From positions 69,724-133,723 of the forward strand of contig JAJEGN010000005.1 in the NCBI GenBank assembly GCA_022819855.1: a DNA stretch of 64,000 nucleotides, given 5' to 3'. The position numbers were made by a program, and so were the translations under genes. Below are positions 10,376 to 64,000 of this stretch, in pieces (the stretch's first letter is position 1; every line of letters begins with the position of its first letter). Under the pieces are notes generated by a model that saw nothing but the letters and a program-made list of their open reading frames with translations, made no database searches and was not told where the DNA came from. This stretch comes from Gammaproteobacteria bacterium (lineage in GTDB: Bacteria; Pseudomonadota; Gammaproteobacteria; Steroidobacterales; Rariloculaceae).

Positions 10376-10517
10376 CGATCTCCTCCCTTGATCGGTCCGA
10401 CTTCAGGAGCCTGCGCTGGCGGGATGGCGCCATCGAACTGCCGCTTTCGCGCATCCTATTGGCACACACTCCTTGCGGGCTTGGATTTTCCACGGTTTCC
10501 GGTAGCTTTTCTAACCC

Positions 10518-11132
10518 ATGTCCCAGAAAAAGACCGATCAGGCCACCGTCACGCGCTGCCCCTGGAGCCTCGGCGTCAACGACACCATGCTCCGCTACCA
10601 CGACACCGAATGGGGCATCCTGGTCCGCGACGACCACCGGCACTTCGAGTTCCTGGTCCTCGAGAGCGCGCAGGCGGGCCTGAGCTGGCGCACGATTCTC
10701 GACAAGCGCGAGGGCTACCGCCGCGCGTTTGCCGGTTTCGACGTGGAACGCGTCGCCCGCTTCAACCGGCGTTCGGTCGAACGCCTCGTGGCCGATCCCC
10801 GCATCGTCAGAAACCGCCTCAAGATCGAGTCGGCGATCAACAACGCGCGGCAGTTTCTGGCCGTCCAGGAGGAATTCGGCAGCTTCACCGACTACATCTG
10901 GCGCTTCGTCGGCGGCGAAACGATTGTCAATCGCTGGCAGACGCAAACCGAAATGCCAGCAACGAGCACCGAGTCGGATCTTCTGAGCCGCGACCTCAAG
11001 TCCCGCGGCTTCAAGTTCGTGGGCTCGATAGTCGTCTATTCGCACATGCAGGCGACGGGGCTCGTCAACGACCACATCGTCGACTGCTTCCGGCATGCCG
11101 AGTGCGGGCTTGAGAGCTTGCCGTCGCAATAG
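10518..11132 (+). CDS. tag: DNA-3-methyladenine glycosylase I
   Basis: RCPW ... YHDTEWG ... FEFLVLESAQAGLSWRTIL is the typical Tag signature. Confidence 0.9.
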   Translation: MSQKKTDQATVTRCPWSLGVNDTMLRYHDTEWGILVRDDHRHFEFLVLESAQAGLSWRTILDKREGYRRAFAGFDVERVARFNRRSVERLVADPRIVRNRLKIESAINNARQFLAVQEEFGSFTDYIWRFVGGETIVNRWQTQTEMPATSTESDLLSRDLKSRGFKFVGSIVVYSHMQATGLVNDHIVDCFRHAECGLESLPSQ

Positions 11133-11139
11133 CCATAAT
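11110..11139 (+). promoter_or_regulatory. Putative sigma70 promoter of tRNA-Arg copy 1 (TTGAGA - 18 nt - CATAAT)
   Basis: TTGAGA at 11110-11115 and CATAAT at 11134-11139, ending 22 nt before the tRNA 5' end. The same block is duplicated at 28801-28830. It lies within the last codons of tag. Confidence 0.35.
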
Positions 11140-11161
11140 CCGGCTGATCACTTTCACGACC

Positions 11162-11237
11162 GCGCCCGTAGCTCAGTGGATAGAGCGCTGCCCTCCGGAG
11201 GCAGAAGTCGGGGGTTCGAATCCCTCCGGGCGCGCCA
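11162..11237 (+). tRNA. tRNA-Arg (anticodon CCG), CCA encoded
   Basis: 76-nt cloverleaf. Acceptor GCGCCCG/CGGGCGC. Anticodon stem CTGCC/GGCAG with loop CTCCGGA. T-arm GGGGG-TTCGAAT-CCCTC, discriminator G, then CCA. Confidence 0.95.
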
Positions 11238-48662: not shown

Positions 48663-50357
48663 TTACTCCGACTCCGCGGCCTCCACCCCAAGACCGCCCG
48701 TAATCCCCTCGACCTGGTTGCCGACCTGAATGGAGCGCGTAATCGCGATCTCGTAAGGCGCGGACCCCTGCGGATCGACGTTGCCGCAGGAAAACGCGCG
48801 CAGCGTGCACTCCGATGTCGTATGGACGATACCGCGCTCGGCCATCATTCGCGTCATGAGTTCGGTCGCTTCGGCCATGTGCAGTATCGCGTTGTTCGGC
48901 CTGAACGAGCCCACGCCGATCGCGTAGTCGATCGGCATCAGCGGCTCGATGCTGCCGCCGAAGGTGCCGTCGTTCTTCTTGCCGAGGTCGTGCACCGCGA
49001 GATCGGCGCCCATATCGATCAGGTACTGGATCATCGAAACCTCGCCGAAGTTCGCGGCCATCATCAGCGGCGTGATGCCGTCGTTGCACGCCCAATTGAC
49101 GTCCGCGCCGTTATCGACGAGATAGCGCATCGTCTCGAGCCGTTCCCCGACCGATCGTCCCTGGCTGTAGCCGTCGATCCAGCCATAGCCGGAGGCGACG
49201 AGCAGCGGAGTCTCGTTGTCGCTGTTTCTGACGAGCGGGTCGGCGCCGCGCTCGTGGAGCAGCCGGACGAGCGTGATGTCGCCGGAATAGGCGGCGCGCA
49301 TGAGCGGTGTGGCGAACTTTACGCGCGGCGAGCCGCCGAAGTTCCTGCGCGACTCGGGGCGGTTGTCGATCCAGGCGTTGGCATTGGCGCCCGCGTCGAG
49401 CAGCTTCTGCACGAGCGGCAGCGGGTCTTCGGTCTGAGTCCACGGGAATCCCGGGTTCCATTCCATGTTGCGGCGGTCGACGGCCCAGAACAGCGGCGTG
49501 AAGCCTTCCGCGTCCGGATGATTGACGATTGCGCCGCGGTCGACCAGCAACGATGCGACGTCGTAATGGCCGTTGTAGATCGCGAGCCCGAGCGTGTTCT
49601 TGCCGTCGGCTGCGATCGCATCGACGTCGGCGCCCGCGTCGAGCAGCAGCCGCGCCGATTCGAGTTCACCCTCGCGCGCGGCGAACTGCAACGGCGTGAA
49701 GCCGCCGTTCGCATAGCTTTGCGGATACTCCTCGGGGTCGTAGTCGACCGGGGCGGTTCCCTCGACTCCGCGGGCGCCCCCGCGCGGTGCGACGACCTTC
49801 GATACGACATCGACCGGCGCTCCGGCCGCGAGCAAACGGTCGACGACGGCCGTGTGGCCTTCGTTGATGGCCCACACGAGCGCCGACGTGCCGCCCCAGC
49901 TTTCGATGGCCGCGACGTCGGCGCCGCGCTCGAGCAATACGTCGACTGCGCCCGGAAGGCCCGTGCGCGCGGCGAGCATGAGCGCCGTATCGCCATCGGG
50001 AGTGAGGGGAGCGTTCGGGTCGGCGCCGGCGTCGATCAGCAAACGAATCGCTGCGGCGCTGCCGTTGATCGCCGCGAGCCTCAGCGGCGTCGTGCCGGTC
50101 CGGTTTTCGATGGTCGGGTCGGCGCCGGCCTCGAGCAGCGCAAGCGCGAGCCCGGTATCGTCGTTCTGAACGGCCCAATGAAGCGCGGTGGAGCCGTCGA
50201 CCTGCTGTTCGTCGACGTCGACGCCGCGTGCGAGCGCGGCCTGGACGGCCTCGCCATCGCCGCGCATCGCGGCGTCAGCTATTTCACTGGCCCGCACTTC
50301 GGCCGCCGCGACGGAAAGCAGCGCCAGGCCAGTGATTCCGATGATGATCGAACGCAT
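48663..50357 (-). CDS. Secreted ankyrin-repeat protein (at least 10 ANK repeats)
   Basis: Signal peptide MRSIIIGITGLALLSVAAAEV. Repeated G-(T/F)-(T/S)-(P/A)-L-x-x-A-x-x-x-G units (DGSTALHWAV, TGTTPLRLAA, GFTPLQFAA, DGITPLMMAA ...). Confidence 0.85.
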   Translation of the reverse strand: MRSIIIGITGLALLSVAAAEVRASEIADAAMRGDGEAVQAALARGVDVDEQQVDGSTALHWAVQNDDTGLALALLEAGADPTIENRTGTTPLRLAAINGSAAAIRLLIDAGADPNAPLTPDGDTALMLAARTGLPGAVDVLLERGADVAAIESWGGTSALVWAINEGHTAVVDRLLAAGAPVDVVSKVVAPRGGARGVEGTAPVDYDPEEYPQSYANGGFTPLQFAAREGELESARLLLDAGADVDAIAADGKNTLGLAIYNGHYDVASLLVDRGAIVNHPDAEGFTPLFWAVDRRNMEWNPGFPWTQTEDPLPLVQKLLDAGANANAWIDNRPESRRNFGGSPRVKFATPLMRAAYSGDITLVRLLHERGADPLVRNSDNETPLLVASGYGWIDGYSQGRSVGERLETMRYLVDNGADVNWACNDGITPLMMAANFGEVSMIQYLIDMGADLAVHDLGKKNDGTFGGSIEPLMPIDYAIGVGSFRPNNAILHMAEATELMTRMMAERGIVHTTSECTLRAFSCGNVDPQGSAPYEIAITRSIQVGNQVEGITGGLGVEAAESE

Positions 50358-50580
50358 CGCCTAATCCCGATTCCGGACCAGCGATCCTCATTATGCACGC
50401 CAGCCCGCTCTGCGCTACGAGTCGGGCTCCTGATGTGCCCCGAATCGATTTCGAAGGGCAAGGCGTCATGTGCCTGGCAGTGGAGTCAGGCGCCAGGATG
50501 AAAACTCCTGATCCCGAATCGGCTGCGTTGAAACGATGGGTCCCGGACGGGCATAGTACGAACGAGAGAGGAGCTGATCG

Positions 50581-52995
50581 ATGCAACAGGCGTCAGGCGG
50601 CAAGAGAGTTCTGATCGCGGCCGTGGCCATAGCGGTGGTCGCGGCGTGGATCGGTTCGTATATCTTCTTCGGCAATTCCTCCGGGCCGCGCCCGGACGGC
50701 GCGATGTCGGCCGATGCCGCGGCCGGCCTCGTCGGCGAATTCTGCGTCGATTGCCACGATGACATCACGCAAACGGCCAACCTGACGCTCGAGCGCCCGG
50801 ACTACGCGGACATCGCCCACGACGCCGAGATGTGGGAGGCCGTGATCCGCAAGCTTCGCGCCGGCATGATGCCGCCGCCCGGCAACCCGCGGCCGGCCGA
50901 CGCCGACTACGCGGCGTTGCGCGACTGGCTCGAGCAGGAGATCGACTCGGCGGCTGCGTCGACGCCGGGAACGAAAGTCCTGCATCGACTGAACCGGACC
51001 GAGTACGCGAACGCGATCCGGGATCTGCTCGATCTCGAGATCGACCCGACCCTGTATCTGCCTCCGGACGACTCCAGCCGCGGCTTCGACAATATCGCGG
51101 GCTCGCTGACGATCTCGCCGACCCTGCTCGAGACTTACGTGACGGCCGCGACGAAGATCGCGCGCATGGCCGTCGGCTTCTGGAATACGCCGACCGAGCG
51201 GCTTTACATCAACAGGACCGACAGCTCCCAGGTCTACGAGCTCGAAGGCATGCCGTTCGGCACGCGCGGGGGCATGGTCGTGCAGCACGTGTTTCCCGGC
51301 GACGGCGACTACACGTTCACGATCCGCAACCTCGGCGTCGGCATCTACATTCCGAACGAGACCCTTGAGCTCAGCATCGACGGCGAGCGCGTGCACGAGT
51401 GGACCTATACCGAGATGGGCATGAGCGCGGGCATGGATTCGGCACGCGACGGCGAGCTCGTCGTCACGCTGCCGGTCGGCGCGGGCTCCAGAACCGTCGG
51501 CGCGACGTTTGTCGCGACGAATTATCGGCCGAGCCTGGACACTGCCCAGCACTTCGCGCGCAAGTCGCTCGAGAACGGCCGCGTGGCCGAACTCTCGAAC
51601 TACCCGGTGATCGGCGCGATGAACATCCAGGGTCCGTTCGATGCGACGCGACCGACCGACAGCGCGAGCCGCCAGAAGATCTTCACCTGTCGCCCGGCCA
51701 CCGAGGCGGAGGAAGAAGCGTGCGCGACCGACATCATCTCGACGCTGACGCGCCGGGCGTTCCGGCGCCCGGTCCGGCCCGGCGATCTCGAGCTCTTCAT
51801 GGGCTTCTATCACGACGGCCGCGAACTCGGTTCGTTCGACGACGGCATCGAGCTTGCGTTGCGGCGCCTGCTTGCGAGCCCGCAGTTCCTCGTGCGCGTC
51901 GAGGAGGAACCGGAAGAGTTCGCCCCCGGCGAGATCTACCGGATCAACGACCTCGAGCTTGCATCGCGGCTCTCGTTCTTTCTCTGGAGCAGTCTGCCTG
52001 ACGACGAGCTGGTCGAGATCGCGGCTGACGGCCGCCTGAGCGACCCGGCGGTTCTGGAGCAGCAAGTGCTGAGGATGCTCGCCGATCCGCGGTCCGCGAG
52101 CCTCATCGAGAACTTCGCGCAGCAGTGGCTGTATCTGCGCAATCTCGACACGACGGCGCCCGCGCAGACCGTATTTCCCGACTGGGACGACGAGCTCCGG
52201 GTGAGCTTCCGCCGCGAGACCGAACTTCTCTTCGAGCACATCATGCGCGAGGACCGCGACGTGCTGGAGATCCTCACTGCCGACTACACGTTCGTCAACG
52301 AGCGCCTCGCCCGGCACTACGGCATCCCGAACATCTACGGGTCGCGCTTCCGACGTGTCGAGCTTGGGCCGGAGATGGACTATCGCCGCGGCATCCTGGG
52401 TCACGGCAGCTTTCTTTCGACGACCTGGGTGCAGAACAATCGTACCTCGCCGGTCAAGCGCGGCGTGTGGGTGCTCGAGAACATTCTCGGCACGCCGCCG
52501 CCGGAACCCCCGCCGGACGTGCCGGCCCTCGAGGAAACCTCGGCCGAAGGTTCGGGTCGAAGGCTCACGCTCCGCGAGCAGATGACGTTGCACCAGGTGC
52601 AGGAGCCGTGCGCGAGCTGTCACCGGATCATGGACAGCATCGGTTTCGCGCTCGAAAACTTCGCAGGCGACGGCCAGTGGCGCGAGCTGGACGGCGGCGC
52701 CGGCGGCACGCCGGTCGACGCGGCCGTCGAGATCTACGACGGTACGCTCGTCGACGGTCCCGTCGAGCTCCGCGCGGCGCTGCTGGAGTACTCGCCGCAG
52801 TTCATGCGGATGCTGACCGAAAAAATGATGACTTATGCGCTCGGGCGCGGCGTCGAATATTTCGATATGCCGGCAATTCGTGCGATAGTGGGGGATGCCG
52901 AGCAGAACGGGAACCGGTTTTCCCGTATCGTGCTCGGGATCGTGAGCAGTGACGCGTTTCAGATGAGAACGAAGGCAGTTCCGGACGAAGCGTGA
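50581..52995 (+). CDS. DUF1587/DUF1592/DUF1595/DUF1588/DUF1585 multi-domain protein with N-terminal CxxCH
   Basis: CVDCHD haem-like motif, LHRLNRTEYANAIRDLL, FLWSSLPDDEL, and CASCHRIMDSIGFALENFAGDGQWRE. Confidence 0.75.
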   Translation: MQQASGGKRVLIAAVAIAVVAAWIGSYIFFGNSSGPRPDGAMSADAAAGLVGEFCVDCHDDITQTANLTLERPDYADIAHDAEMWEAVIRKLRAGMMPPPGNPRPADADYAALRDWLEQEIDSAAASTPGTKVLHRLNRTEYANAIRDLLDLEIDPTLYLPPDDSSRGFDNIAGSLTISPTLLETYVTAATKIARMAVGFWNTPTERLYINRTDSSQVYELEGMPFGTRGGMVVQHVFPGDGDYTFTIRNLGVGIYIPNETLELSIDGERVHEWTYTEMGMSAGMDSARDGELVVTLPVGAGSRTVGATFVATNYRPSLDTAQHFARKSLENGRVAELSNYPVIGAMNIQGPFDATRPTDSASRQKIFTCRPATEAEEEACATDIISTLTRRAFRRPVRPGDLELFMGFYHDGRELGSFDDGIELALRRLLASPQFLVRVEEEPEEFAPGEIYRINDLELASRLSFFLWSSLPDDELVEIAADGRLSDPAVLEQQVLRMLADPRSASLIENFAQQWLYLRNLDTTAPAQTVFPDWDDELRVSFRRETELLFEHIMREDRDVLEILTADYTFVNERLARHYGIPNIYGSRFRRVELGPEMDYRRGILGHGSFLSTTWVQNNRTSPVKRGVWVLENILGTPPPEPPPDVPALEETSAEGSGRRLTLREQMTLHQVQEPCASCHRIMDSIGFALENFAGDGQWRELDGGAGGTPVDAAVEIYDGTLVDGPVELRAALLEYSPQFMRMLTEKMMTYALGRGVEYFDMPAIRAIVGDAEQNGNRFSRIVLGIVSSDAFQMRTKAVPDEA

Positions 52996-53065
52996 GTTTG
53001 ATTGCCGAAACCCATCGCGCTGGCGATGCCGACAGCCTCGCCACGGCCCGGGTCAAGGAGCAAGC

Positions 53066-54406
53066 GTGATGTTCATAACGAAAAAACACCTGCCGAGACG
53101 AACGTTCCTGCGCGGCGCCGGCGCGACAGTCGCGCTCCCGCTGCTCGACGCGATGATCCCGGCCGCAACGGCGCTCGCACAGACGGCGGCTGCGCCGGTC
53201 CGGCGATTCCTCGGCGTCTGGCATCCGCATGGTGCGTCGCCCGGTTACTGGAGCCCGCTGCAGGAAGGCAGGGACTTCGAGTTCTCGTTCATCACCGAGC
53301 CGCTCGAGGCCGTGCGCGATCACACCGTACTGATCAGTGGCCTCGACTGCACCGCAGCTTACTCGACGCCCGAAGAGCCGGGCGGCAATCATGCCCGGGG
53401 CGCCGTTTTCCTGTCCGGTGTACGGCCGCGGCGCGATGCCGTGAGCCCGTACCTCGGCGTCACGATCGACCAGTTGATTGCCGAGAAATACGGCCGCGAT
53501 ACGCTGCTCTCGTCGATCCAGCTCGGCATCGAGGATGCGAGCCACAACTCCGGCAACTGCAACTGGGGCTATAGCTGCGCTTACACGAACTCCGTGTCAT
53601 GGCCCGATCCGGAGACACCGCTGCCGACTGAGATCAATCCGCGCATCGCATTCGAACGGATGTTCGGCGACGGGTCGACGCCGGAGGAGCGGCGCCTCGG
53701 CCGCCTGCAGAGCGCGAGCGTGCTCGACTCGGTCACACACGAGATTCCCGGATTGAAGAACGGCCTCGCGATCGGCGACCAGGCGCGGCTCGACGACTAC
53801 CTGGACAAGGTCCGCGAGATCGAGCGCCGCATTCGCAACGCCGTCGACAGCCCGGCCGCCGAGGTCACGACCGACGTGCCTTTCGGCATTCCCGAGAGCA
53901 AGGGCGCCCACTACAAGCTCATGTACGACCTGATCGCGCTGGCGTTTCAGGCCGACATCACCCGCTCGGCGACGCTCATGCTCGGGCGCGACCTGTCGGG
54001 CACGAGCATTCCGGAGTCAGGCTACGAAGGCGGCTGGCACGGCCTCTCGCATCATGGCGACATTCCGGCCAACAAGGCCGGCTACGCGAAGGTGAACCGC
54101 TATCACGTCGCATATCTCGCCGATTTCTGCGAACAGTTGCGCGACACCGAGGACGGGGACGGCAACCTGCTCGACCATTCTCTCGTCTACAAGTCGAGCA
54201 ACATGGGCAACTCGCACCGGCATGCGCACGAGAAGGTGCCGACGATTCTGGTCGGCGGTATCGACGGCACGTTCGAGGGCAACCGGCATCTCGTGTATCG
54301 CGACAATACCGAGCGTTGCGCGAATCTGCTGCTCGCGATCCTGCATCTGTACGGTATCGAGCAAAACTCGATCGGCGAGAGCACGCATCCGCTCGAGATG
54401 GTCTGA
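53066..54406 (+). CDS. DUF1552 protein with Tat-like signal
   Basis: RRTFLRGAGATVALPLLDAM N-terminus; usual partner of the DUF1592-type gene upstream. Confidence 0.75.
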   Translation: MMFITKKHLPRRTFLRGAGATVALPLLDAMIPAATALAQTAAAPVRRFLGVWHPHGASPGYWSPLQEGRDFEFSFITEPLEAVRDHTVLISGLDCTAAYSTPEEPGGNHARGAVFLSGVRPRRDAVSPYLGVTIDQLIAEKYGRDTLLSSIQLGIEDASHNSGNCNWGYSCAYTNSVSWPDPETPLPTEINPRIAFERMFGDGSTPEERRLGRLQSASVLDSVTHEIPGLKNGLAIGDQARLDDYLDKVREIERRIRNAVDSPAAEVTTDVPFGIPESKGAHYKLMYDLIALAFQADITRSATLMLGRDLSGTSIPESGYEGGWHGLSHHGDIPANKAGYAKVNRYHVAYLADFCEQLRDTEDGDGNLLDHSLVYKSSNMGNSHRHAHEKVPTILVGGIDGTFEGNRHLVYRDNTERCANLLLAILHLYGIEQNSIGESTHPLEMV

Positions 54407-54458
54407 GTCCGTCGCGTTGGTGGGAGCGATTCGCTCGGCAGCGAGTTCCGCCCTGCGA

Positions 54459-55136
54459 ATGATTTCCGATCACTTACATCCGACGCCCTGCGGCAGTTCT
54501 GCGGCCGCGCGAGCAATGTCGACCGCGCCGGCCAGACTGTCCGCGCGCCGGCCAACGCTCCGCGGCAGTTCCGCTGCCGCTCGTGCCTTGCTGCTCGTCG
54601 TGCTCGGCATCGTGTCGATCGATGCCGCGCAGGCGCAGTTCGAGAACAACCGCAGGCCGCCCCGGCCGGATGTCACCTTGCCCGACGGCCCTGCCCGGCA
54701 GGTGATTCTGCGCAACTGCACGAAATGCCACGGAATCGACGAGTACGGCTACTACGCGCTCGACCGCGCCCGCTGGGACGCCGTGATCGAACGGATGAAG
54801 ACCGCAAAGAGCGGCCTTGCCGAAGGCACCGATATCTCCGACGCCGACAAGGAAATCCTGCTGGACTGGCTCGTCGCCGAGTACGGGCCGGATTCGGAGC
54901 CGCTCGCCCGTCAGTACGTGATCCGGCCGCTCGAGGACTTCGAGCTGCTCGACGATGCTGGGGCGACCGAATTGATCCAGACCGGATGCAGCGAATGTCA
55001 CGGCGTCGACACCGTGCTCGACGCGAACCTCACGGTGGAAGAGTGGCGGCTTCGGCTGATGCTCGAACTCAGCCGCGGCGGCGGCGTCCTGATCGCCGAC
55101 GCTGAGCCCCTCGTGCAGTGGCTGATCGGCCGCTAG
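54459..55136 (+). CDS. Small dihaem c-type cytochrome; start uncertain (54459 or 54516)
   Basis: Two CxxCH motifs (CTKCHG, CSECHG) after a signal-like LLLVVLGIVSIDAAQAQ. The listed start 54222 overlaps the DUF1552 gene and is not used. Confidence 0.6.
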   Translation: MISDHLHPTPCGSSAAARAMSTAPARLSARRPTLRGSSAAARALLLVVLGIVSIDAAQAQFENNRRPPRPDVTLPDGPARQVILRNCTKCHGIDEYGYYALDRARWDAVIERMKTAKSGLAEGTDISDADKEILLDWLVAEYGPDSEPLARQYVIRPLEDFELLDDAGATELIQTGCSECHGVDTVLDANLTVEEWRLRLMLELSRGGGVLIADAEPLVQWLIGR

Positions 55137-55966
55137 TTTGGCGGTAGTTTAGCCCGCAATTCGCTGGCTCAAATCGCCAACAATCGGACTCCTCACATAA
55201 GTCATTGAACTTATTTCGGTTATCGCCATTTGCAAGCTCGCCAGAATAACTGCGACCGACTTCAAGTAAGCATACCGTAAGCGACTTTCACCAAAAAACC
55301 AGCGCCTTCGTGCGCAGACTTGTCGGTAATTCTACCGACCAAGTTTTACGCTGTCGCTTCATGACAAACGGCCATTCCGCGCAACTTATGCGCGGCCAAA
55401 CATCCGTACGACCGGTCCCGCGCATGCCCACGATCAGCTATAGCTCGATTGCTTGCCGCCTTCGATCAGCCCGCACGCGTCTTACCTCTGAGACGAACTC
55501 TGCGCGATCCCTACAGTTCAGACAACAGCGCCTCGAGCCGCGCGGCGCACGCGGGCGACCGCCAAGTCGGGATCGGTTAGCGGACTGTGCCAGTCATCGA
55601 CAGCACTGCATCGTACCCATCGTCGCTCAGGGACCAAGGCGCTCTTGGCTGAACGCTAGAATGTCGCCTGATAGGTAACATCTAGCACTCTTCCCATAGC
55701 ACCACAAATCAAGTCCAGTTTGACGCGCTTGGAACTGAGAGCGAGCCTCGAAACTCTGGTACATTTGCTCCCAAGTGGGCGTGAAACTTTGCCTTGGCAT
55801 CCGCTCCGCGCACGACCGTCCGGCGAGCGGACAACAACGTTGATGATGGACCTGAACAAAGGTTACTGATGTTACTGCGCTACGAATCGACGGTCTCGTG
55901 GAGGAACCCCTGCCGTACCGGGGTTGCCACGAGCAATGAAATGCACAACGAACCGGCGTAGGGAAA

Positions 55967-57058
55967 ATGGCTGCATTCGATCTTCCCTCAAAACTCTCGA
56001 CATACCGGCTTCGCCTGTACCATCATTATTCACGTTCGGGTGAACGACTGCTGCGTGACGTTATCCGAAGATCATATGTTCATGTAGTCGAAGGGACCGT
56101 TTCCGACCGATGGAACGGCGGTACCTACGGCCACGACGCGCATTTCTACTTGCCAATTGAAGAACTGACCAAAGTCAATATCGACGATATCGAAGTTTTC
56201 ACAGAGCGAATCTGTGAAGATCTGAACAAAGTCTGTGATCGTGGCAAGCACGAGTTTTTCTCCACTGTTCACCTGCAGCTTTACGACGAGACCGACGAGC
56301 ACTGCCGCCGCGCCAAACCATTCCGTGGCAGCCCGGATCGCGATCCCGATACATTGTCTATCTGGAAGCGCGGGATGGTTCGCCTGTTCATCAGCCACCG
56401 CGACGAGCATAAGGCCAAGGCGAATGAACTGGCGCAAGCCCTGGAACCCTATGGCATATCGTCCTTCGTTGCACACGATTCGATCGAACCGATGACCCGT
56501 TGGCAGACCGAGATTCTTAACGGCCTGGAAACAATGGAAGCCATGCTGGCCTTTATCACCGATGATTTTCGCGAAAGCGTCTGGGCAAACCAGGAAATCG
56601 GTTTCGCCCTGGGCAGGGGAATTCCGATTGTTTCGCTGAAAATCCAGAAGTCAGACCCACACGGATTCATCGGCAGCCAACAGGCTCTCAAGTGCCATGT
56701 CGACGACATTGACACCGCGGCTCCCAAAATCTACGGGCTTATCGCGGAGAAGCTTGACAACGCCGAAAGATTGCAGCAGTCGCTCATACGCTCATTTGTG
56801 GCTTCGCCAAACTTCATTGAATCAATGGCCAGATTCGACCGAATGAACGCTGTCGTGTCCAACCTATCCGACCCCGAAGTTCAGCAAATCGTGAACGGTT
56901 ATCGGGATAACGACCAGCTTCATAACGCAGCCTATTTCAGGAGCCGTAATGGAAGGCTGTGCATGTTTCTGAATCGCGTAACCGGAAAGACATTCATCGT
57001 CGAGCGAAAAAATCTCGTTACTGTCGGCGACTCCGAAGAACTTGATGTTCCGTTCTGA
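55967..57058 (+). CDS. TIR-domain protein with unknown N- and C-terminal domains
   Basis: Residues ~137-245: VRLFISHRDEHKAKANELAQAL..SFVAHDSIEPMTRWQTEI..AMLAFITDDFRESVWANQEIGFA. This is a bacterial TIR pattern, with candidate catalytic Glu210 at nt 56594-56596. Low-GC island. Confidence 0.75.
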   Translation: MAAFDLPSKLSTYRLRLYHHYSRSGERLLRDVIRRSYVHVVEGTVSDRWNGGTYGHDAHFYLPIEELTKVNIDDIEVFTERICEDLNKVCDRGKHEFFSTVHLQLYDETDEHCRRAKPFRGSPDRDPDTLSIWKRGMVRLFISHRDEHKAKANELAQALEPYGISSFVAHDSIEPMTRWQTEILNGLETMEAMLAFITDDFRESVWANQEIGFALGRGIPIVSLKIQKSDPHGFIGSQQALKCHVDDIDTAAPKIYGLIAEKLDNAERLQQSLIRSFVASPNFIESMARFDRMNAVVSNLSDPEVQQIVNGYRDNDQLHNAAYFRSRNGRLCMFLNRVTGKTFIVERKNLVTVGDSEELDVPF

Positions 57059-57202
57059 CAATGTATTTCATAAAGGCCCAGAGGGCGCGCTCTCAAGAGC
57101 ATCAGCGAATCGTGGTCGATCGCGTCGTTGAGAGCGTCGCAAGAAAGCAAGTCAAAGCGGATTTAGGCACGCATTCAACTGTTGTTTGCAGTATCCCGTG
57201 GC

Positions 57203-58066
57203 ATGAACACGAACTCATCAGGAAGACGATTTGGCAGGACGACGCTCGTTGCGGCAGCGGAATTCCTCGAAGGCCATGTGCAGGCCGGATTCAACCAGAT
57301 GGCCGTCCGATTGGAACTGGAACGCGAAATACCGGAGGACACGGGTATGAGCGTGCAAAAGAAGTGCGCTCGGCTCGCGCGGATCGTCGCGAACGACCCG
57401 GATAGGGAAATCGACACGCTTGAAGGACGAAAGACATTGGCCGAGGCTGTCATTCTTGAGGCATTGGCACTGGCCGAATACGAGTCCGGCAATCGGGCAC
57501 AGATGGTACTCGAGCAGTCCCTAGCACGAGATGGCTACGCACTTCACTGGGAAGAGGGTGAGGAGTTCGCACGTTCTTGGTCCGGACGCGGCGGCGCGGC
57601 GCTAATTTCTGCGCTGCCACAGGAGTTAGCGGCTGACGAGCCCAATGATGAAGTTCGCCAGATCTTGCAGGAAAAAGGATTCGAGAGGACTCTGGGGCAC
57701 CTGAACCAGGCAGTGAGTGGTCACGGACGCGGCGATTGGGCAGCGGCGAACAGCCAGGTCCGCACGTTCGTGGAGAGCCTGGTGGAGGAGATAGCAATTG
57801 ACGTGGGTGTCACGAACGCGCATGAGTTGACCGCGGAAAACCGTCTTCGTGCACTACACAACCTTGGATTTCTCTCCAGTGAGCGCAATGAATGGTTGGG
57901 AGACGGCAAGGGTTTCATCAACGGGCTGATTAAGATGCTGCATACGGAAGGATCGCATCCTGGGTTGTCGGATGCAGATCACAGCACCTTCAGGTTACAT
58001 GTAGTATTGGTGACGGCTAGATTGTTGCTGCGCCGGTTGCGAGAGTTTCGCAATGACGATCGGTGA
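57203..58066 (+). CDS. All-helical protein with Abi_C/HEPN-like C-terminus; tentative
   Basis: ATG 57203 in ORF 57182..58066. The C-terminal INGLIKMLHTEGSHPGLSDADHSTFRLHVVLVTARLLL follows the Abi_C pattern (..lRN..g.aHG...), but with H in place of R. A separate R-x4-H occurs in NRLRALHNLG. Confidence 0.45.
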   Translation: MNTNSSGRRFGRTTLVAAAEFLEGHVQAGFNQMAVRLELEREIPEDTGMSVQKKCARLARIVANDPDREIDTLEGRKTLAEAVILEALALAEYESGNRAQMVLEQSLARDGYALHWEEGEEFARSWSGRGGAALISALPQELAADEPNDEVRQILQEKGFERTLGHLNQAVSGHGRGDWAAANSQVRTFVESLVEEIAIDVGVTNAHELTAENRLRALHNLGFLSSERNEWLGDGKGFINGLIKMLHTEGSHPGLSDADHSTFRLHVVLVTARLLLRRLREFRNDDR

Positions 58067-58259
58067 CGAACGCCGCACGACCGCTGTGAGCGCAGAGGCT
58101 GTAAAATGTAATCTGGATATACGCTCTGGGAGTGACTTGGCCGGCTCTGCCTAGGGCATCCGAACCTGACCGACGGTAGAATGCGACCGTTTTTTATGTG
58201 CCGATGTTGATTCCGCTTAGAAAATCGAGGAGCGAAACTTGGTAAATGCAGGAGCTCAT

Positions 58260-59258
58260 ATGTCAGTGCTGGTCGAAGACATCGAACTTGACCAGTCAAA
58301 CCCAAGGATTCGTAAGTTCCTTGAAATGTACGGCGACGAACCAACTTCAGAGCAAATCTTCCTTGCCCTCGGTGCCGGGAACGAGGATGACGTCGGTTCA
58401 TCGAACAGCACCACTTATGAGAAGCTTAAACAATCGATCATTTCGAACGGTGGCATCATACAGCCGATAATCTTGAACCGACGCAGCGACGGATCGCTGA
58501 TTTGCGTCGAGGGCAATACGCGTGTCGCCCTTTACAAACACTTTCACGATACCAATGTAAAAGGCGACTGGACGCACATCCCGGCATTGGTTCATGATGA
58601 GATCGACCAAGCGTCGGTCCACGCAATTCGCCTGCAGGTACATCTGGTTGGCCCCCGCCCTTGGGATCCCTATTCAAAAGCCAAGTACCTGTACGAGCTT
58701 CGCACACAGCAGCATCTTCCCTTCGCAACCATCGTGGACTATTGCGGTGGGCGCCAAAACGAAGTGGTCGAGAGCATAAATGCCTACGCTGACATGGAGC
58801 AATACTATCGTCCAGTTGTCGGCGACGACGGAGAGTTCGACACGACTCGCTTCAGTGGATTTGTGGAATTGCAGAAGCCCGGGCTGAAGCAGGCCATCAC
58901 TGCCGCAGGATTCGACTTAAGCGACTTCGCTCGATGGATTCATGACGGTAGGCTCTTCCCCCTGCAGAAGGTACGAGTACTTCCTCGTATCTTGCGCAAT
59001 GAGAAGGCCCGCGCGATTTTTCTCAAGCAGGGTGCGCGCACGGCTGAGTCAGTGCTGGAAAAGCCAGACCTAAATCGGACGCTTCAGGAGGCTGAAATCG
59101 GCCAATTTGCGCGGGCGCTGGTCGCCAAGATCGCCTCACTCCCTTACAGTGAGTGCCAACGAATTTCGAACGATATCGGCGGCGATACAGCACAGGCCCT
59201 AATTGACGCTCAAGCTGAACTCACGGAATTGACCAAATCCCTCGGCCTAACAACCTGA
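58260..59258 (+). CDS. ParB N-terminal (ParB/Srx fold) domain protein, paralogue 1
   Basis: ATG 58260 with AGGAG 5 nt upstream. IELDQSNPRI, then LKQSIISNGGIIQPIIL..DGSLICVEGNTRVALYKH (GxxR box at nt 58512-58523). Helical C-terminal half. Confidence 0.7.
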   Translation: MSVLVEDIELDQSNPRIRKFLEMYGDEPTSEQIFLALGAGNEDDVGSSNSTTYEKLKQSIISNGGIIQPIILNRRSDGSLICVEGNTRVALYKHFHDTNVKGDWTHIPALVHDEIDQASVHAIRLQVHLVGPRPWDPYSKAKYLYELRTQQHLPFATIVDYCGGRQNEVVESINAYADMEQYYRPVVGDDGEFDTTRFSGFVELQKPGLKQAITAAGFDLSDFARWIHDGRLFPLQKVRVLPRILRNEKARAIFLKQGARTAESVLEKPDLNRTLQEAEIGQFARALVAKIASLPYSECQRISNDIGGDTAQALIDAQAELTELTKSLGLTT

Positions 59259-59259
59259 T

Positions 59260-59673
59260 ATGCCCGAGTCAGCGGCCCATTCCAGCCTAGTCCAGACCGT
59301 CATCCGCTACGCGGAACGCGAATTCGGGGGCCTTGCCAATATCGCGATCCGAGAGGACGCGCTACGTCCGCTTAGGGGAGAAAGGCCGCCGAAAATTGAA
59401 GGCCATGTTCCAGACGTGTTCGTTATCAATGTCCCGACCACCACGACACTCATCGGCGAAGCCAAAACAGAGCACGATATCGATACTCACCATTCGCACC
59501 AGCAGATTTCAGCCTTTCTGCGTTACCTGTCAAATACGCCGCGGGGCATATTCGTATTTAGCGTTCCCTTCGGCTCCGCCGCGGCAGCCCGTAGGCTTCT
59601 TGCCCAACTCAACCAGCCCTTCTCGCACGCTGCCACCAGAACAGTCGTACTCAACACCTCAGATCTAGAGTAG
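59260..59673 (+). CDS. Small (137 aa) putative PD-(D/E)xK nuclease-fold protein
   Basis: HVPDVFVINVPTTTTLIGEAKT gives P51-D52 (nt 59413-59415) and E67-A-K69 (to nt 59466). Its start is 1 nt after the upstream stop. Confidence 0.5.
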   Translation: MPESAAHSSLVQTVIRYAEREFGGLANIAIREDALRPLRGERPPKIEGHVPDVFVINVPTTTTLIGEAKTEHDIDTHHSHQQISAFLRYLSNTPRGIFVFSVPFGSAAAARRLLAQLNQPFSHAATRTVVLNTSDLE

Positions 59674-59686
59674 AAATGATTCAGCT

Positions 59687-61168
59687 ATGTTGAAGGTTCG
59701 GAAGGCAGCAAATCTTCAAGCCAAATGGTCCGCATTCCCGCATCAACTGGATGCCTTCGAAGCAATCAAGGACCTCCCCTACGCGGCAGTTTTTCACGAG
59801 CAGGGACTTGGGAAAACAAAAATCGGCCTCGACCTGGCCTTGTCTTGGTTGGATCGCGATATCGTTGATTCTGTTCTTGTCGTCGCCAAGAAGTCGCTAA
59901 TCGCCAATTGGCGGTCGGAAGTAGCGACCCATTCCCACTTGACCCCGCGCATCCTGGGACAAGACCGCAACGCGAACTTTTTCGCCTTCAACAGCCCTGT
60001 GCGCCTTTATCTAATGCACTATGAGGCGCTGGTTTCGGAGCGCAAGCGCTTGGATCTCTTCCTTAGAACCCGCCGCGTGGGTGTGCTGCTGGACGAGGCG
60101 CAGAAGATCAAGAACCCCAACACGAGGATTAGCCGCGCGCTTCACGCACTTGCCGACGGCTTCGTCCGTCGAGTCATCATGACTGGTACCCCCGTAGCCA
60201 ATCGTCCCTACGATCTGTGGTCGCAGGTACGGTTCCTCGACGGCGGCAAGTCACTCGGTCACGATTTCACGGACTTCAAGCGCGCTCTGGACTTGACGAA
60301 CGAGCTCGCCCGTGACACGGAGCGTGCGACCGCCTTTGCCTCTGATCTCGACAGGCTCTTCGACAAGATTTCCCATTTTTCGATCCGCGAGACCAAGAAG
60401 ACCGCCGGACTGAATCTACCGGGCAAAACAATTCAAAACGTAGAGTGCCAGCTCGAGTCATCTCAGGCCGAGATGTACAACCAGTTCCGCTACGAACTCG
60501 CGGCCGTCGTCGTTCAAGAGGGACGAGCTGTTCTGGACGACGCCGAAGGCCTGCTAAAGCGCCTGCTTCGCCTAGTTCAAGTCGCATCGAATCCCGCGAC
60601 GATCGACCAATCCTACAAGGCACAACCCGGCAAACTCTTGTATTTGGACAACCTGGTCCACGAAGCGGTGGATGCAGGCGACAAGGTTATCGTCTGGACA
60701 TCGTTCACTGCAAACGCGGACTTTCTGGGACTGCATCTGGCCGAGTTTGGCGCCGTTGTTGTGCATGGTGGGCTTAGCCTCGGAGTTCGCGAAGAAGCGC
60801 TTGCTACTTTCAAGACCAATCCGGAGTGCCAAGTCCTTGTAGCCACACCCGGAGCTGCGAAGGAAGGGCTGACGTTAACTGTCGCCAACCATGCGGTGTT
60901 TTTTGATCGCAGCTTCAGTCTCGACGATTACCTGCAAGCGCAAGACCGTATCCATAGAATTTCGCAAGACAAACCCTGCCATGTAACCAATTTGGTTGCG
61001 ACTGGTACGGTAGACGCTTGGGTGGACGCATTGCTAGCCGCCAAGCATCTGGCTGCTCAACTCGGACAAGGCGACATTACCCGCCGGGAATACGACCGCC
61101 GCGCCGACTACGCGTTTGGAGATATGGTTCGAGATGTCCTGCAGCTAGACGGAGCAGTTGAACAATGA
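59687..61168 (+). CDS. Compact SNF2-family helicase/translocase
   Basis: Motif I EQGLGKTK (nt 59804-59818), II LLDEAQKIKN (DEAQ = nt 60092-60103), III MTGTPVANRPYDLWSQVRFL, V ATPGAAKEGLTL, VI QAQDRIHRISQ. Confidence 0.9.
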   Translation: MLKVRKAANLQAKWSAFPHQLDAFEAIKDLPYAAVFHEQGLGKTKIGLDLALSWLDRDIVDSVLVVAKKSLIANWRSEVATHSHLTPRILGQDRNANFFAFNSPVRLYLMHYEALVSERKRLDLFLRTRRVGVLLDEAQKIKNPNTRISRALHALADGFVRRVIMTGTPVANRPYDLWSQVRFLDGGKSLGHDFTDFKRALDLTNELARDTERATAFASDLDRLFDKISHFSIRETKKTAGLNLPGKTIQNVECQLESSQAEMYNQFRYELAAVVVQEGRAVLDDAEGLLKRLLRLVQVASNPATIDQSYKAQPGKLLYLDNLVHEAVDAGDKVIVWTSFTANADFLGLHLAEFGAVVVHGGLSLGVREEALATFKTNPECQVLVATPGAAKEGLTLTVANHAVFFDRSFSLDDYLQAQDRIHRISQDKPCHVTNLVATGTVDAWVDALLAAKHLAAQLGQGDITRREYDRRADYAFGDMVRDVLQLDGAVEQ

Positions 61169-62175
61169 CCGACTCAAAAACAAAAGATTCACAGCCAGAG
61201 ACACTGCTCATTCGCGGGGTGGATATACCAGTTCAGACTGTGACGATGTTGCAGGCAGATCTCCGCTTCTTTGTCGACAATCCGCGGGTCTATTCCATCC
61301 TTCGATTGGACGGCAGCAAGCCAAGCCAGGCCGACATACAGCAAAAGCTGCTTAAAATGGATCACGTCAAAGCACTGATTCAGGACATAAAGCGCGATGG
61401 CGGACTAACCGATCCTGTCATCGTCCGGGCCGGTAGTATGGAGGTCTTGGAAGGAAACAGCCGACTCGCGGCTTACCGCGTGTTGTACAGGATCGACCCT
61501 ATTAGGTGGGCCAAGATCAAGTGCAGGCTCTTGCCCGAGGATATCGATGAACGTCTCATCTTCGCGCTACTCGGTCAGTACCACATCAAGGGCAAGAAGG
61601 ATTGGGCCCCGTTTGAACAGGCTGGATTTCTCTATCGACGTTCAACGACTCACAATCTTGACCCCGCACAGCTCGCCCGAGAGATCGGCTTGTCGAAGAG
61701 GAAGGTCGAACACCTTATCGCCACCTACCAGTTCATGCTCGATCATAAAGAGAGCGATACAGCCCGCTGGAGCTACTACGACGAATATCTGAAGTCCCGG
61801 ATAATCCGTAAAGCGCGGCTCAATCAGCCCGGCTTCGACGACCTTGTCGTCGAGAAGATCAAGTCTGGAGAGATTGCGAAAGCAGTCGATGTCCGCAACC
61901 GATTGCCCGTGATCTGCTCTGCGCCCAAGGTATTGAAGAAATTCGCGAAGAGGGCTTATGACTTCGAGGATGCGCACGAACAAGCCGTGGATGCCGGGGC
62001 CGACAGCGCGCCCTATCGAAGGCTTGCCACATTTCGGCAATGGATTGCGAAGCCGGAAGTGGCCAGAACCCTGGGACGTACTCAAGGACAGACCCGGAAG
62101 AAAATTGAGTTCGAGCTTGACAAGCTCGCGAGGCGCATCCAGGTCGTGAGAGGCCAGCTCAATCGGAAAACCTGA
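61165..62175 (+). CDS. ParB N-terminal domain protein, paralogue 2
   Basis: ATGA overlap with the SNF2 stop. FVDNPRV, then LIQDIKRDGGLTDPVIVRAGSMEVLEGNSRLAAYR (GxxRxxA box at nt 61453-61464). Its C-terminal half is alignable with that of 58260..59258. Confidence 0.7.
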   Translation: MTDSKTKDSQPETLLIRGVDIPVQTVTMLQADLRFFVDNPRVYSILRLDGSKPSQADIQQKLLKMDHVKALIQDIKRDGGLTDPVIVRAGSMEVLEGNSRLAAYRVLYRIDPIRWAKIKCRLLPEDIDERLIFALLGQYHIKGKKDWAPFEQAGFLYRRSTTHNLDPAQLAREIGLSKRKVEHLIATYQFMLDHKESDTARWSYYDEYLKSRIIRKARLNQPGFDDLVVEKIKSGEIAKAVDVRNRLPVICSAPKVLKKFAKRAYDFEDAHEQAVDAGADSAPYRRLATFRQWIAKPEVARTLGRTQGQTRKKIEFELDKLARRIQVVRGQLNRKT

Positions 62176-62241
62176 ATCTACGCCAGGTCACAAAACGCAC
62201 GACGGCAGATATACCCCTTGACTCGCAGAAAAAATCAACGC

Positions 62242-62266
62242 AAAGTGCAGCCTACGGCTGCACTTT
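62242..62266 (+). promoter_or_regulatory. Perfect 11-bp stem / 3-nt loop hairpin in the only sizeable intergenic gap of the operon
   Basis: AAAGTGCAGCC-TAC-GGCTGCACTTT, followed 8 nt later by TTTT. A TTGACT hexamer lies at 62218-62223 upstream. The function (attenuator, terminator or processing site) is not established. Confidence 0.5.
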
Positions 62267-62283
62267 AGGGGAATTTTCGGCTC

Positions 62284-63312
62284 ATGTCGTCCACAATTGC
62301 GATCGACTGCCTCCGCGGCCGGTCGGCGCACCGTTCAGTCTTGCTCGGGTGTGCGCCCGCAGACTTGCTGTATAAGGTGAGCTTTCCGGATGTTTTCGAC
62401 GAGGATAGCGGACACGGCTATCAGCGACCCTTCAATGAGCGGCACAGTCAGGACTTCCGGCGCTACATCAAGAAAGCTCACAGTTCAACCATTCCGCTGA
62501 CACTGAACCTACGGCCTTCTGCCGAAGGCAAGTGGCGCATCCTCGAATTGACCAATGGCAGGGTTCGGTTGGAAATAGATGCCAATGCAGGAAAGATCAT
62601 GGCGCAGGTCGATTGCCAGCACCGGCTCGGCCATTTGGGTGACCTCCCGATTCAGTTGCCCTTCATGTGTTTCATTGGGCTCTCCGAGCAGGACGAGATG
62701 GAGATTTTCAGCATCATAAACGGCAAAGCCAAGGGACTGAGCACTAGCTTGCTGGACTACCACGCAGCGCAGCTTGCCGAGAATCTGGCAGAAGACCGCC
62801 CAGAATTGTTCATCGCATTACAGCTCAACAGCATCGAAGACTCGCCATTCTTTCGACGGTTGAACTTAGGCGGTAAGACCACATCCGGACTCAAGCGAAT
62901 TGTCTCGTTGCGGATGATGCAGCAGGCAGTCAAGAAATTCTTGAAGGCAACCGCAATCCTTTCCACTGACTCTGTTGACCACGCCGCTACCGTGGTCCTT
63001 GACTTCTGGACTGCGGTCTCGGTTGTGCTTGCAGACCAATGGGCGAACCCCCGTCGACATATGATTGCCAAGGGTATCGGGGTCTATTCGCTCATGACGA
63101 TAGCAGCCGATATTTACATAGAGTGCCGTGATGCCGATAGGAACTGCGACAGGCGGGCCTTCATCACTGCCCTGGCAGATTTTGCCGGCTCGATTGATTG
63201 GTCCACCTCAGGCCCTCTCAAGGGGTTTGGCGGACAAGGCGGGGTCACGGCCGCCGTTGACCACCTACGCGAAGCGAGAAAACAGGCACGATACAAGGTG
63301 GTGAATGGCTAA
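62284..63312 (+). CDS. DGQHR-domain (DndB/DpdB-like, ParB-fold) protein
   Basis: GYQRPFNERHSQDFRRYI, then QVDCQHRLGHL (DCQHR = nt 62611-62625). This is a variant of the DGQHR signature. Confidence 0.75.
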   Translation: MSSTIAIDCLRGRSAHRSVLLGCAPADLLYKVSFPDVFDEDSGHGYQRPFNERHSQDFRRYIKKAHSSTIPLTLNLRPSAEGKWRILELTNGRVRLEIDANAGKIMAQVDCQHRLGHLGDLPIQLPFMCFIGLSEQDEMEIFSIINGKAKGLSTSLLDYHAAQLAENLAEDRPELFIALQLNSIEDSPFFRRLNLGGKTTSGLKRIVSLRMMQQAVKKFLKATAILSTDSVDHAATVVLDFWTAVSVVLADQWANPRRHMIAKGIGVYSLMTIAADIYIECRDADRNCDRRAFITALADFAGSIDWSTSGPLKGFGGQGGVTAAVDHLREARKQARYKVVNG

Positions 63313-64000
63313 CAAGAACATTCTCCTCATTGAACCGGGCTACAAGAACAAGTATCCACCGCTCGGTTTGATGAAGATTGCCCAATATCACGGTCCGCGT
63401 GGCAAGAGAGACCGTGTGCGCTTCATCAAGGGAACCGACCGCTCGGTTCTATCTGAGGCTTGGGACCGGATCTACGTCACGACGCTTTTCTCTTTCGAAT
63501 ACCGAAAGACCGCACAGACGATCGACTTCGCCTTGGATGTCGCCAATAGGCAGGCCGACAAAGTCTTCGTCGGCGGCATAGCAGCGTCGCTCATGCATGA
63601 ACGCTTCCTTAACGAACCGCGCTGGCAAGGCGTGCGCTTCATCAAAGGACTGCTGTCAGCGCCGCCCGCGATTTCCCTTCAACTTGATGACTTCGCAGAA
63701 GAGCTCTACGCAGACGACACCATCGGGAAGCCGATAGAAGATCTCGTGCCAGATTACGGCATCATTGACCAGATCGACTATAACTACGCCGTTCGGGACG
63801 CGTACTTTGCGTACACGACCCGTGGCTGCATCCGCAAATGTCACTTTTGCGGTGTGCCAAAGCTTGAGGGCAAACAGCGCGACACTGAGTCGTTGAGTTC
63901 AACCGTACGTGCCATTGAGGAACTATACGGGCCGAAGAAAGACCTGATCCTCATGGACAACAACGTTGTCGCTTCTCCTCGCTTTAAGGAAATAATTGCC
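63305..64000 (+). CDS. Radical SAM protein with B12-binding-like N-terminal domain (5' partial; runs off the window)
   Basis: Not in the ORF track because there is no stop. ATG 63305 overlaps the upstream gene by 8 nt, and the frame is open for 232 codons. NILLIEPGYKNKYPPLGLMKIAQYH (B12-binding-type start), then YTTRGCIRKCHFCGVP with CxxxCxxC at nt 63827-63850. Confidence 0.8.
   Translation, partial: MANKNILLIEPGYKNKYPPLGLMKIAQYHGPRGKRDRVRFIKGTDRSVLSEAWDRIYVTTLFSFEYRKTAQTIDFALDVANRQADKVFVGGIAASLMHERFLNEPRWQGVRFIKGLLSAPPAISLQLDDFAEELYADDTIGKPIEDLVPDYGIIDQIDYNYAVRDAYFAYTTRGCIRKCHFCGVPKLEGKQRDTESLSSTVRAIEELYGPKKDLILMDNNVVASPRFKEIIA

Follow-up and report, generated by a model that had tools for sequence, protein, structure and literature searches.

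The 64,000-nucleotide (nt) stretch of a gammaproteobacterial contig (JAJEGN010000005.1) analysed here, henceforth referred to as the window, ends, as comparison with related sequences indicates, in the 5′ part of a conserved and horizontally mobile operon that encodes a DGQHR-domain protein of the DCQHR subtype, a radical S-adenosylmethionine (SAM) enzyme and an Hsp90-like ATPase of the GHKL family. Tentatively, and with confidence that falls a little short of even, we read this operon, together with a module of ParB-like, PD-(D/E)xK-like and SNF2 proteins and often with PIN-like and GHKL proteins, as a defence system of DNA modification and restriction that resembles Dnd and Dpd and would employ radical chemistry. 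The cluster is widespread, mobile and apparently unstudied: full-text literature searches returned no description of a system that combines DGQHR, radical SAM and Hsp90-like proteins.

Relatives of the radical SAM gene fragment in the window were sought in 185,579 species genomes, with one genome per species, and 261 matching stretches were recovered. Locus counts out of 80 refer to the best 80 loci from these stretches, which are 75–89% identical to the window fragment; neighbour families were defined by clustering of open reading frames (ORFs) over 81 loci and neighbourhoods were viewed over ±10 kb. The original prediction, made from the letters of the window, held that a radical SAM gene missing from the ORF list is translationally coupled to the DGQHR gene. 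This was borne out: the frame starts with an ATG at 63305–63307 and runs without a stop codon through position 64000 (232 codons, just the first ~43% of the gene), and its absence from the list is explained because frames running off the window were omitted there. The translation contains both of the features that had been pointed out, namely a Rossmann-like start, MANKNILLIEPGYKNKYPPLGL, at the N-terminus and the cluster motif CIRKCHFC (C175-x3-C179-x2-C182). The upstream product matches the DGQHR model TIGR03187 well above its cutoff (E 2.4e-38; 132.5 bits, cutoff 58.85), and its stop codon, TAA at 63310–63312, lies inside the radical SAM frame, which gives the predicted 8-nt overlap (ATGGCTAA); a Shine-Dalgarno-like AAGGTGG (63295–63301) is found just 5′ of the radical SAM ATG. 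Because the identical overlap occurs in 53 of the 62 related loci that have both genes, across phyla, and because a database search with the 232-residue fragment gives 913 relatives at E ≤ 1e-3, up to 87–88% identical, the overlap is more than chance. The linkage proposed from one window is also recurrent, since ORF clustering placed a DGQHR gene directly 5′ of the radical SAM gene in 65/80 loci, drawn from at least seven phyla-level groups, with 62 near-full-length adjacent copies.

The radical SAM gene is genuine and represents an orphan family. Related loci come from Alpha- and Gammaproteobacteria, Acidobacteriota, Binatia, Eremiobacterota, Armatimonadota and Verrucomicrobiota, and the gene, when read from the homologous ATG, encodes an intact protein of 526–546 amino acids (aa) in 74/80 of them; the remaining six copies (loci L001/L032, L002, L035, L043 and L076) are disrupted by frameshift, internal deletion or truncation. 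At L001/L032 (10001–11630) the frameshift splits the gene into parts of 277 and 269 aa in a long-read genome, where an assembly error is possible, and the L002 copy (9304–11185) carries an internal deletion and lies beside an ISL3 transposase, with the DGQHR gene replaced. Systematic truncation of the family, which short hits in the first list had suggested, was rejected, as the hits were short because contigs were fragmentary or, in one long-read genome, because of a frameshift. With a full-length query the search returned at least 7,868 clusters at 90% identity, and the family comprises 279 representatives at 50% clustering (E ≤ 1e-30), which their source annotations call merely ‘radical SAM protein’ or ‘hypothetical protein’. 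When compared with models of known systems (Pfam, NCBIfam and PADLOC-DB v2), the enzyme reached none of the thresholds; its best scores, all near the cluster motif, were 15–25 bits against cutoffs of 251–775, and the sub-threshold matches were to the B12-binding radical SAM families TIGR04072, HpnJ, PhpK and BchE and also to RimO/MiaB. Even PF04055 (cutoff 29.5 bits) was missed by the window fragment (20.3) and by full-length homologues (23.5–25.2), and some divergent members scored 29.4–29.9 bits. Neither the radical SAM protein nor the GHKL protein had a PADLOC-DB v2 match at E ≤ 0.01, sequence and profile searches of the PDB with the radical SAM enzyme gave RimO alone, as a weak match, and a fold search of BFVD gave nothing beyond unannotated COG1032 and radical SAM proteins of phages. 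Longer family members (640–820 aa) contain extra regions without a Pfam match and so provided no clue from fusions. With these scores, the enzyme falls into no characterised metabolic radical SAM family, in line with the original prediction.

The relatives that fall below 35% identity are short radical SAM proteins from phages and lack the partner genes of the operon. Many of the loci L103–L162 (including L117, L118 and L157) have such relatives of ~290–330 aa, 27–33% identical, on phage-like contigs, sometimes directly 5′ of an SNF2 helicase gene, and annotated phages that carry them include Marinitoga camini virus 1, Clostridium phage phiCT453B and a Bacteroides LoVEphage.

To describe the fold we used an AlphaFold2 model of a homologue (P0121) that is 89% identical to the window fragment. 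The model has a mean predicted local distance difference test score (pLDDT) of 71, with high confidence over residues 1–350, and consists of an alpha/beta domain (residues ~5–125), a linker, the cluster loop with a partial TIM barrel and a C-terminal part that is all-helical, of lower confidence and ends in a disordered acidic tail. Foldseek comparison with the PDB gave MtaB and RimO as the best folds, followed by lysine 2,3-aminomutase, B12-binding domains and the B12-radical-SAM enzyme GDGT-MAS; MtaB (9a6d), RimO (4jc0), lysine 2,3-aminomutase (2a5h) and GDGT-MAS (7tol) were matched with probability 1.00 at modest TM-scores of 0.27–0.47. The N-terminal domain matched the B12-binding proteins AerR (7te2) and 1y80, but also a receiver-like domain of CpaE, and PF02310 stayed below its cutoff (32.1 bits) in a close homologue (E 0.075) and in two divergent members (E 9.5e-4 and 2.2e-4). 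The architecture had thus been fairly described as that of class-B, B12-binding radical SAM enzymes insofar as a Rossmann-like domain precedes the cluster motif, but methylthiotransferases share this layout and the B12-binding match is sub-threshold, and an assignment to class B, for which the layout is the basis, is a putative one. Methylthiolation, which had been among the chemistries proposed, appears unlikely. Residues 1–174 of the window protein contain no cysteine and C175, C179 and C182 are the sole invariant cysteines across 40 diverse family members, and the protein thus has no auxiliary cluster, which argues against methylthiolation. Identity with the methylthiotransferases was rejected on the missing auxiliary-cluster cysteines and on the helical C-terminus that stands in place of a TRAM domain, and the corresponding models scored far below their cutoffs (TIGR01125, 19–21 bits against 357; TIGR00089, 15–16 bits against 251).

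The original prediction treated the DGQHR protein as the partner of the radical SAM enzyme. Although the two genes are indeed adjacent in 62–65 of the 80 loci, the near-constant partner is the GHKL ATPase (~525 aa), the gene of which lies directly 3′ of the radical SAM gene in 77/80 loci and is joined to it by a stop/start overlap (ATGA or GTGA) in ~65 of 70. The GHKL family carries PF13589 (HATPase_c_3), its profile matches the N-terminal domain of HtpG (E 4.8e-11) and some sources label its members ‘molecular chaperone Hsp90/HtpG’. In a Foldseek search with a model of the protein (pLDDT 75.6) the top 46 matches were Hsp90, HtpG, TRAP1 and GRP94 structures, aligned over 330–586 columns, and SMCHD1 came next after them; the protein thus combines a Bergerat N-terminal domain with a middle domain of the Hsp90 type. 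It was rejected as an equivalog of HtpG (NF003555, 27.5 bits against a cutoff of 371). The radical SAM/GHKL pairing is kept in a ~40%-identical clade, even with swapped order, and one divergent locus of this clade has DEAD, MZB and NERD-UvrD genes upstream. In the loci of this clade from IMG/VR contigs (L098–L102 and L107; ~40–45% identical) the GHKL gene precedes the radical SAM gene with a 4-nt overlap, and two unannotated proteins of ~355 and ~550 aa are encoded upstream; at L098 a weakly nucleoside 2-deoxyribosyltransferase-like protein is encoded 3′ of the pair. In a common set of 52 loci the radical SAM enzyme is the most conserved component (mean pairwise identity 74.5%), ahead of the DGQHR protein (57.5%) and the GHKL protein (48.5%), a contrast in rate that fits a constrained catalyst with faster-diverging partners.

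The DGQHR protein probably acts as a DndB-like autoregulator. All 62 of the radical SAM-linked copies have the motif DCQHR, the PF14072 DndB match is marginal (30.4 bits, cutoff 29.1) and a PDB sequence search with the protein gave no match. It was rejected as an equivalog of DndB, as TIGR04172 was far below cutoff (29.7 bits, cutoff 450) and neither dndCDE nor any other Dnd family was among the recurrent neighbour families, and likewise as an equivalog of DpdB, as the DpdB model NF041060 was far below cutoff (59.2 bits, cutoff 300) and no TGT-like DpdA was among the island proteins scanned. Upstream of the gene, ~40 nt 5′ of its start codon, 55 of the 62 loci with an adjacent DGQHR gene have a strict dyad with the consensus AAnnTGCAGyCnnnnnnTGCAnnTT, in which two TGCA half-sites are separated by 9 nt. 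When the spacing was relaxed to 5–17 nt the dyad was found in 57/62 loci; in random 113-nt segments drawn from these loci its frequency was 1.8%. It is usually present as a single copy per 20 kb. By contrast with loci that have the gene, the ~16 loci without an adjacent DGQHR gene have no dyad within 250 nt 5′ of the radical SAM start. A TTGAC box lies 27–30 nt 5′ of the first TGCA in 26/62 loci, and because the distance is exactly 28 nt in 21 of them the dyad can be placed over the predicted −10 region and transcription start; in the window the TTGACT box is separated from the dyad by 22 nt. A generic promoter and terminator scan of the island performed at chance level and flagged the hairpin only, and an Rfam scan of the island found no family, hence no cobalamin or SAM riboswitch. 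A precedent is DndB, which acts on TACG-N10-CGTA palindromes in its promoter to repress its own operon (PMC4507180). Since the conserved operator co-varies with the DGQHR gene, a DndB-like autoregulator is the parsimonious reading of our data, and autoregulation also fits the absence of the gene from ~20% of loci.

The features of the window, and the modules that recur around the radical SAM gene in related loci, are collected in Table 1.

Table 1. Features of the DGQHR/radical SAM locus in the window and gene modules found around the radical SAM gene in the best 80 related loci
Feature	Position in window	Strand	Related loci (of 80)	Basis or remark
DGQHR-domain protein, DCQHR subtype, 342 aa, ParB/DndB superfamily; proposed DndB-like autoregulator	62284..63312	+		TIGR03187, PF14072
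Orphan radical SAM enzyme, N-terminal 232 codons: flavodoxin/Rossmann-like domain, CX3CX2C motif, barrel start	63305..64000	+		translation, homology; gene cut by window end
TTGACT, −35-like box of the predicted DGQHR/radical SAM operon promoter	62218..62223	+		TTGAC spacing to operator
Dyad operator TGCA-N9-TGCA (TGCAGCCTACGGCTGCA), putative DGQHR-protein site	62246..62262	.		inside 11-bp perfect inverted repeat 62242–62266
ParB-like protein 1, 339 aa, first of four-gene module	58239..59258	+		EGNxR box, weak ParB matches
p137, 137 aa, putative nuclease	59260..59673	+		PD-(D/E)xK-like motif
SNF2-family helicase, 493 aa	59687..61168	+		PF00176, PF00271
ParB-like protein 2, 336 aa	61165..62175	+		same family as ParB-like protein 1; 4-nt overlap with SNF2 stop
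ParB-like/p137/SNF2/ParB-like module	58239–62175		~28	syntenic
SNF2 with three ParB-like genes, variant of that module			~9	
PIN_8 protein (~650 aa) with paralogous GHKL protein			39	PF18476, E 3.5e-23
Large DGQHR protein, 540–790 aa			19	
HerA-like/GHKL/unknown protein			~10	often with DUF5131 gene

The recurrent neighbours (ParB-like, DGQHR, SNF2, PD-(D/E)xK-like and PIN-like) point to nucleic acid, mostly DNA. In the ParB-like family the EGNxR box is invariant across the alignment and the family profile gives a weak match to a ParB N-terminal domain in the PDB (7bnr, E 8e-3); ParB-like protein 1 weakly matches PDC-M38A of PADLOC, and plasmid orthologues of ParB-like protein 2 are named ‘ParB N-terminal domain-containing protein’ by the Prokaryotic Genome Annotation Pipeline (PGAP). 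Over 22 homologues of p137 the residues P51, D52, G66-E67-A68-K69-T70 and D73 are invariant (PD...GEAKT), and the protein has no Pfam, NCBIfam or PDB sequence match. The helicase matches PF00176 (E 2.5e-27) and PF00271 (E 5e-16) and shows partial similarity to the PADLOC families ZorD (E 1.9e-40) and DpdE (E 4.5e-35). In the large DGQHR protein the motif takes its canonical form, DGQHR, and the C-terminal region gives a weak match to PDC-M34B of PADLOC (examples are L008 2493–4616, L001 13215–14828 and SARO_RS17535 of plasmid pNL1); the protein occurs mostly at loci without the SNF2/ParB-like module, and both are present in L005. The HerA-like (DUF87) protein is encoded together with a third paralogue of the GHKL protein and with an unknown ~300-aa protein at L073 (3793–8886), L059, L069, L075, L080 and L081, and the DUF5131 gene beside this module belongs to the three-cysteine Gp37/Gp68 family (PF07505, E 5e-99).

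Co-occurrence was assessed on a set of 72,556 plasmids. Full-length radical SAM genes were present on 12 plasmid records, representing ~9 independent plasmids that include pNL1 of Novosphingobium aromaticivorans DSM 12444 and pR132505 of Rhizobium leguminosarum WSM1325. The PIN_8 protein, the partner of a second Hsp90-like ATPase, was encoded on exactly those 12 records, plus one distant match, and on one record 90 kb separate its gene from that of the radical SAM enzyme. Seven records had the ParB-like module, all of them among the 12 with the radical SAM gene, and the same was true of ParB-like protein 2 (7/7). That these nuclease and helicase modules were never seen without the radical SAM/GHKL pair is the pattern expected of restriction components tied to modification. 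In the window, GC content falls from ~66% to ~55% near 55.2 kb (~55000–55500) and remains low to the window end, so that the drop resembles the left edge of an island gained by horizontal transfer; the right edge falls beyond the window, and no tRNA gene was found within 50000–64000. An AIPR family (Abi) gene, integrases, insertion sequence (IS) elements and toxin-antitoxin genes are found at related loci, some of which are on conjugative plasmids. At the low-GC edge of the island, just 5′ of the ParB-like module, there is an unannotated ORF of 294 aa (57182–58066, plus strand), and further upstream a TIR-domain gene (55967–57058, plus strand; PF13676, E 2e-14) with weak ThsB/ThcB4-like matches. 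Neither is conserved in the 80 related loci and the two may be a separate defence pair.

How the components might work together can be sketched, and we regard the resulting scheme as possible although somewhat doubtful: the radical SAM enzyme would place a covalent self mark on DNA, the Hsp90-like clamp would deliver it, the DGQHR protein would be a DndB-like repressor and the PIN-like and SNF2/PD-(D/E)xK/ParB-like proteins would be the readers. Motif co-variation suggests that the DGQHR protein binds TGCA-N9-TGCA over the predicted −10 region and represses its own operon as DndB does. The radical SAM enzyme, with a single [4Fe-4S] cluster and SAM, would generate a 5′-deoxyadenosyl radical and, working with the ATP-gated clamp, would mark host DNA, a substrate for which the genomic context argues; the mark could be C-methylation should the N-terminal domain be cobalamin-binding. 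DNA without the mark would then be attacked by the nuclease and helicase modules.

Several points weigh against this reading of the operon as a modification-restriction system. What the analysis shows are the fold assignments, the conservation and co-occurrence of the genes, and their content and coupling; from these we infer both the DNA modification and the DNA substrate, and the putative nuclease fold of p137 is predicted from its motif alone. The classical role of Hsp90-type ATPases is that of protein chaperones and not of DNA clamps. Some ~20% of loci lack the DGQHR gene, and at L070 and L077, at least, the three-gene core is alone within ±10 kb. Furthermore, the radical SAM gene of the window is truncated, and its integrity and the presence of a downstream GHKL gene are deduced from relatives that are 88–89% identical. 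Finally, paralogous GHKL proteins are also paired with the PIN nuclease and with a HerA-like ATPase and an unknown protein, an arrangement that sensor-effector immunity fits equally. This is the main rival, which we consider on balance unlikely: the Hsp90-like ATPase would sense infection or hold the enzyme inactive, no self-marking would take place, the radical SAM enzyme would be the effector that makes an antiviral nucleotide analogue in the manner of viperin or damages invading nucleic acid, and the DGQHR protein would regulate expression only. The use of the same GHKL type with alternative enzymes (radical SAM, PIN_8, or HerA-like with neighbour family f20) does resemble effector swapping, the GHKL protein is the fastest-evolving component, the stand-alone core is in keeping with such a system and radical SAM defence effectors exist in the form of viperins and Ophion. 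However, a viperin-like enzyme was rejected, because the protein has no sequence relation to viperins and no viperin model is among its NCBIfam matches; tight DndB-like repression is typical of modification control; and the strict dependence of the PIN and ParB/SNF2 modules on the radical SAM gene in the plasmid set is expected of restriction that relies on modification, not of independent effectors.

Less probable still is that the radical SAM enzyme modifies protein or RNA in place of DNA, either by maturing a partner with the help of the Hsp90-like chaperone or by modifying tRNA or rRNA as MiaB, RimO, RlmN and Cfr do. The substrates of its nearest structural neighbours are tRNA (MtaB) and ribosomal protein S12 (RimO), and the GHKL partner has the fold of Hsp90 proteins, which handle protein clients; the methylthiotransferase hallmarks (auxiliary-cluster cysteines and TRAM domain) are nevertheless missing, and the recurrent neighbours favour DNA. 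That an ordinary metabolic radical SAM gene lies beside the DGQHR gene by chance, or that the gene is a truncated pseudogene, we hold to be very improbable. The window shows 232 codons only and 6 of the 80 relatives are disrupted, but the other 74 are intact, the stop-free window fragment is 88–89% identical to intact genes, no characterised family was matched, and both the linkage to DGQHR and the identical 8-nt overlap are retained in 53 loci across phyla.

Dnd and Dpd have already taken the marking of self and non-self in bacteria beyond methylation. If the modification-restriction reading is true, the operon described here would add a third chemistry for complex bacterial modification-restriction systems, beside phosphorothioation and 7-deazaguanine, and would contain the first host radical SAM enzyme that marks genomic DNA. 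For DNA epigenetics and phage defence alike, both the chemistry and the class of enzyme would be new, and the operon would imply a base or backbone modification that current sequencing and liquid chromatography-mass spectrometry (LC-MS) pipelines have possibly missed. An ATPase of the Hsp90 type, usually seen as a protein chaperone, would be placed in a role in nucleic-acid conflict. The cluster is present in tractable cultured strains, namely the N. aromaticivorans and R. leguminosarum strains that harbour pNL1 and pR132505, where it corresponds to SARO_RS17510–17535 and RLEG_RS34110–34150, respectively.

Among known systems, Ophion (OpnABC) and the prokaryotic viperins share with this operon the presence of a radical SAM enzyme inside a defence gene cluster. 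A relationship to Ophion was rejected, as both the partners and the enzyme type differ: Ophion combines a viperin-related enzyme with a PHP domain protein and a phosphoribosyltransferase (PRTase), whereas here a COG1032-like enzyme is found with Hsp90-like and DGQHR proteins. Radical SAM enzymes of phage thymidine hypermodification and spore photoproduct lyase are precedents for action on bases already in DNA. Our enzyme has no detectable specific sequence relationship to them, and they serve anti-restriction or DNA repair, whereas ours belongs to a host operon that also encodes a DGQHR regulator and an Hsp90-like ATPase. With COG1032-type enzymes (class B methylases and MiaB/RimO/MtaB) it has in common the ~125-residue N-terminal alpha/beta domain, the linker, the CX3CX2C motif at ~175 and the partial TIM barrel, as well as weak matches around the cluster motif to TIGR04072, HpnJ, PhpK, BchE and RimO. 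It differs from them in scores far below cutoffs, in the lack of auxiliary-cluster cysteines, of a TRAM domain and of an above-threshold PF02310 match, and in a helical C-terminal domain with an acidic tail that is unique to this family. The GHKL partner, like MORC/paraMORC and other GHKL ATPases of restriction-modification systems, is a Bergerat-fold ATPase (PF13589) encoded in a nucleic-acid conflict locus, and the chromatin ATPase SMCHD1 is among its structural matches; unlike MutL and MORC, it matches Hsp90, HtpG and TRAP1 best, over the N-terminal and middle domains, and no PADLOC model covers it.

The closest parallels are with Dpd and Dnd. In Dpd (DpdA/B/C with DpdD-K), as here, a DGQHR/ParB-like gene adjoins the gene of the modifying enzyme within a multi-gene island, and the SNF2-like helicase of the window resembles DpdE. 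DpdB is an essential ATPase cofactor, whereas the DGQHR gene of the present operon has its own operator and is dispensable in about one-fifth of loci (~20%); moreover, neither a TGT-like DpdA nor DpdC was seen among the island ORFs scanned, and the DpdB model reached 59 bits against 300. The Dnd system (DndB-regulated dndBCDE with DndFGH restriction) differs in that homologues of DndA, DndC, DndD and DndE are lacking here, the motif is DCQHR and the DndB model TIGR04172 is far below cutoff, the enzyme of the chemistry step is a true radical SAM protein and the ATPase is Hsp90-like and not SMC/ABC-like. Nevertheless, both operons begin with a DGQHR gene whose own promoter contains a palindromic operator (TACG-N10-CGTA for DndB and TGCA-N9-TGCA here), both combine an Fe-S enzyme with an ATPase, and both are accompanied by separate nuclease and helicase modules and lie on mobile islands.

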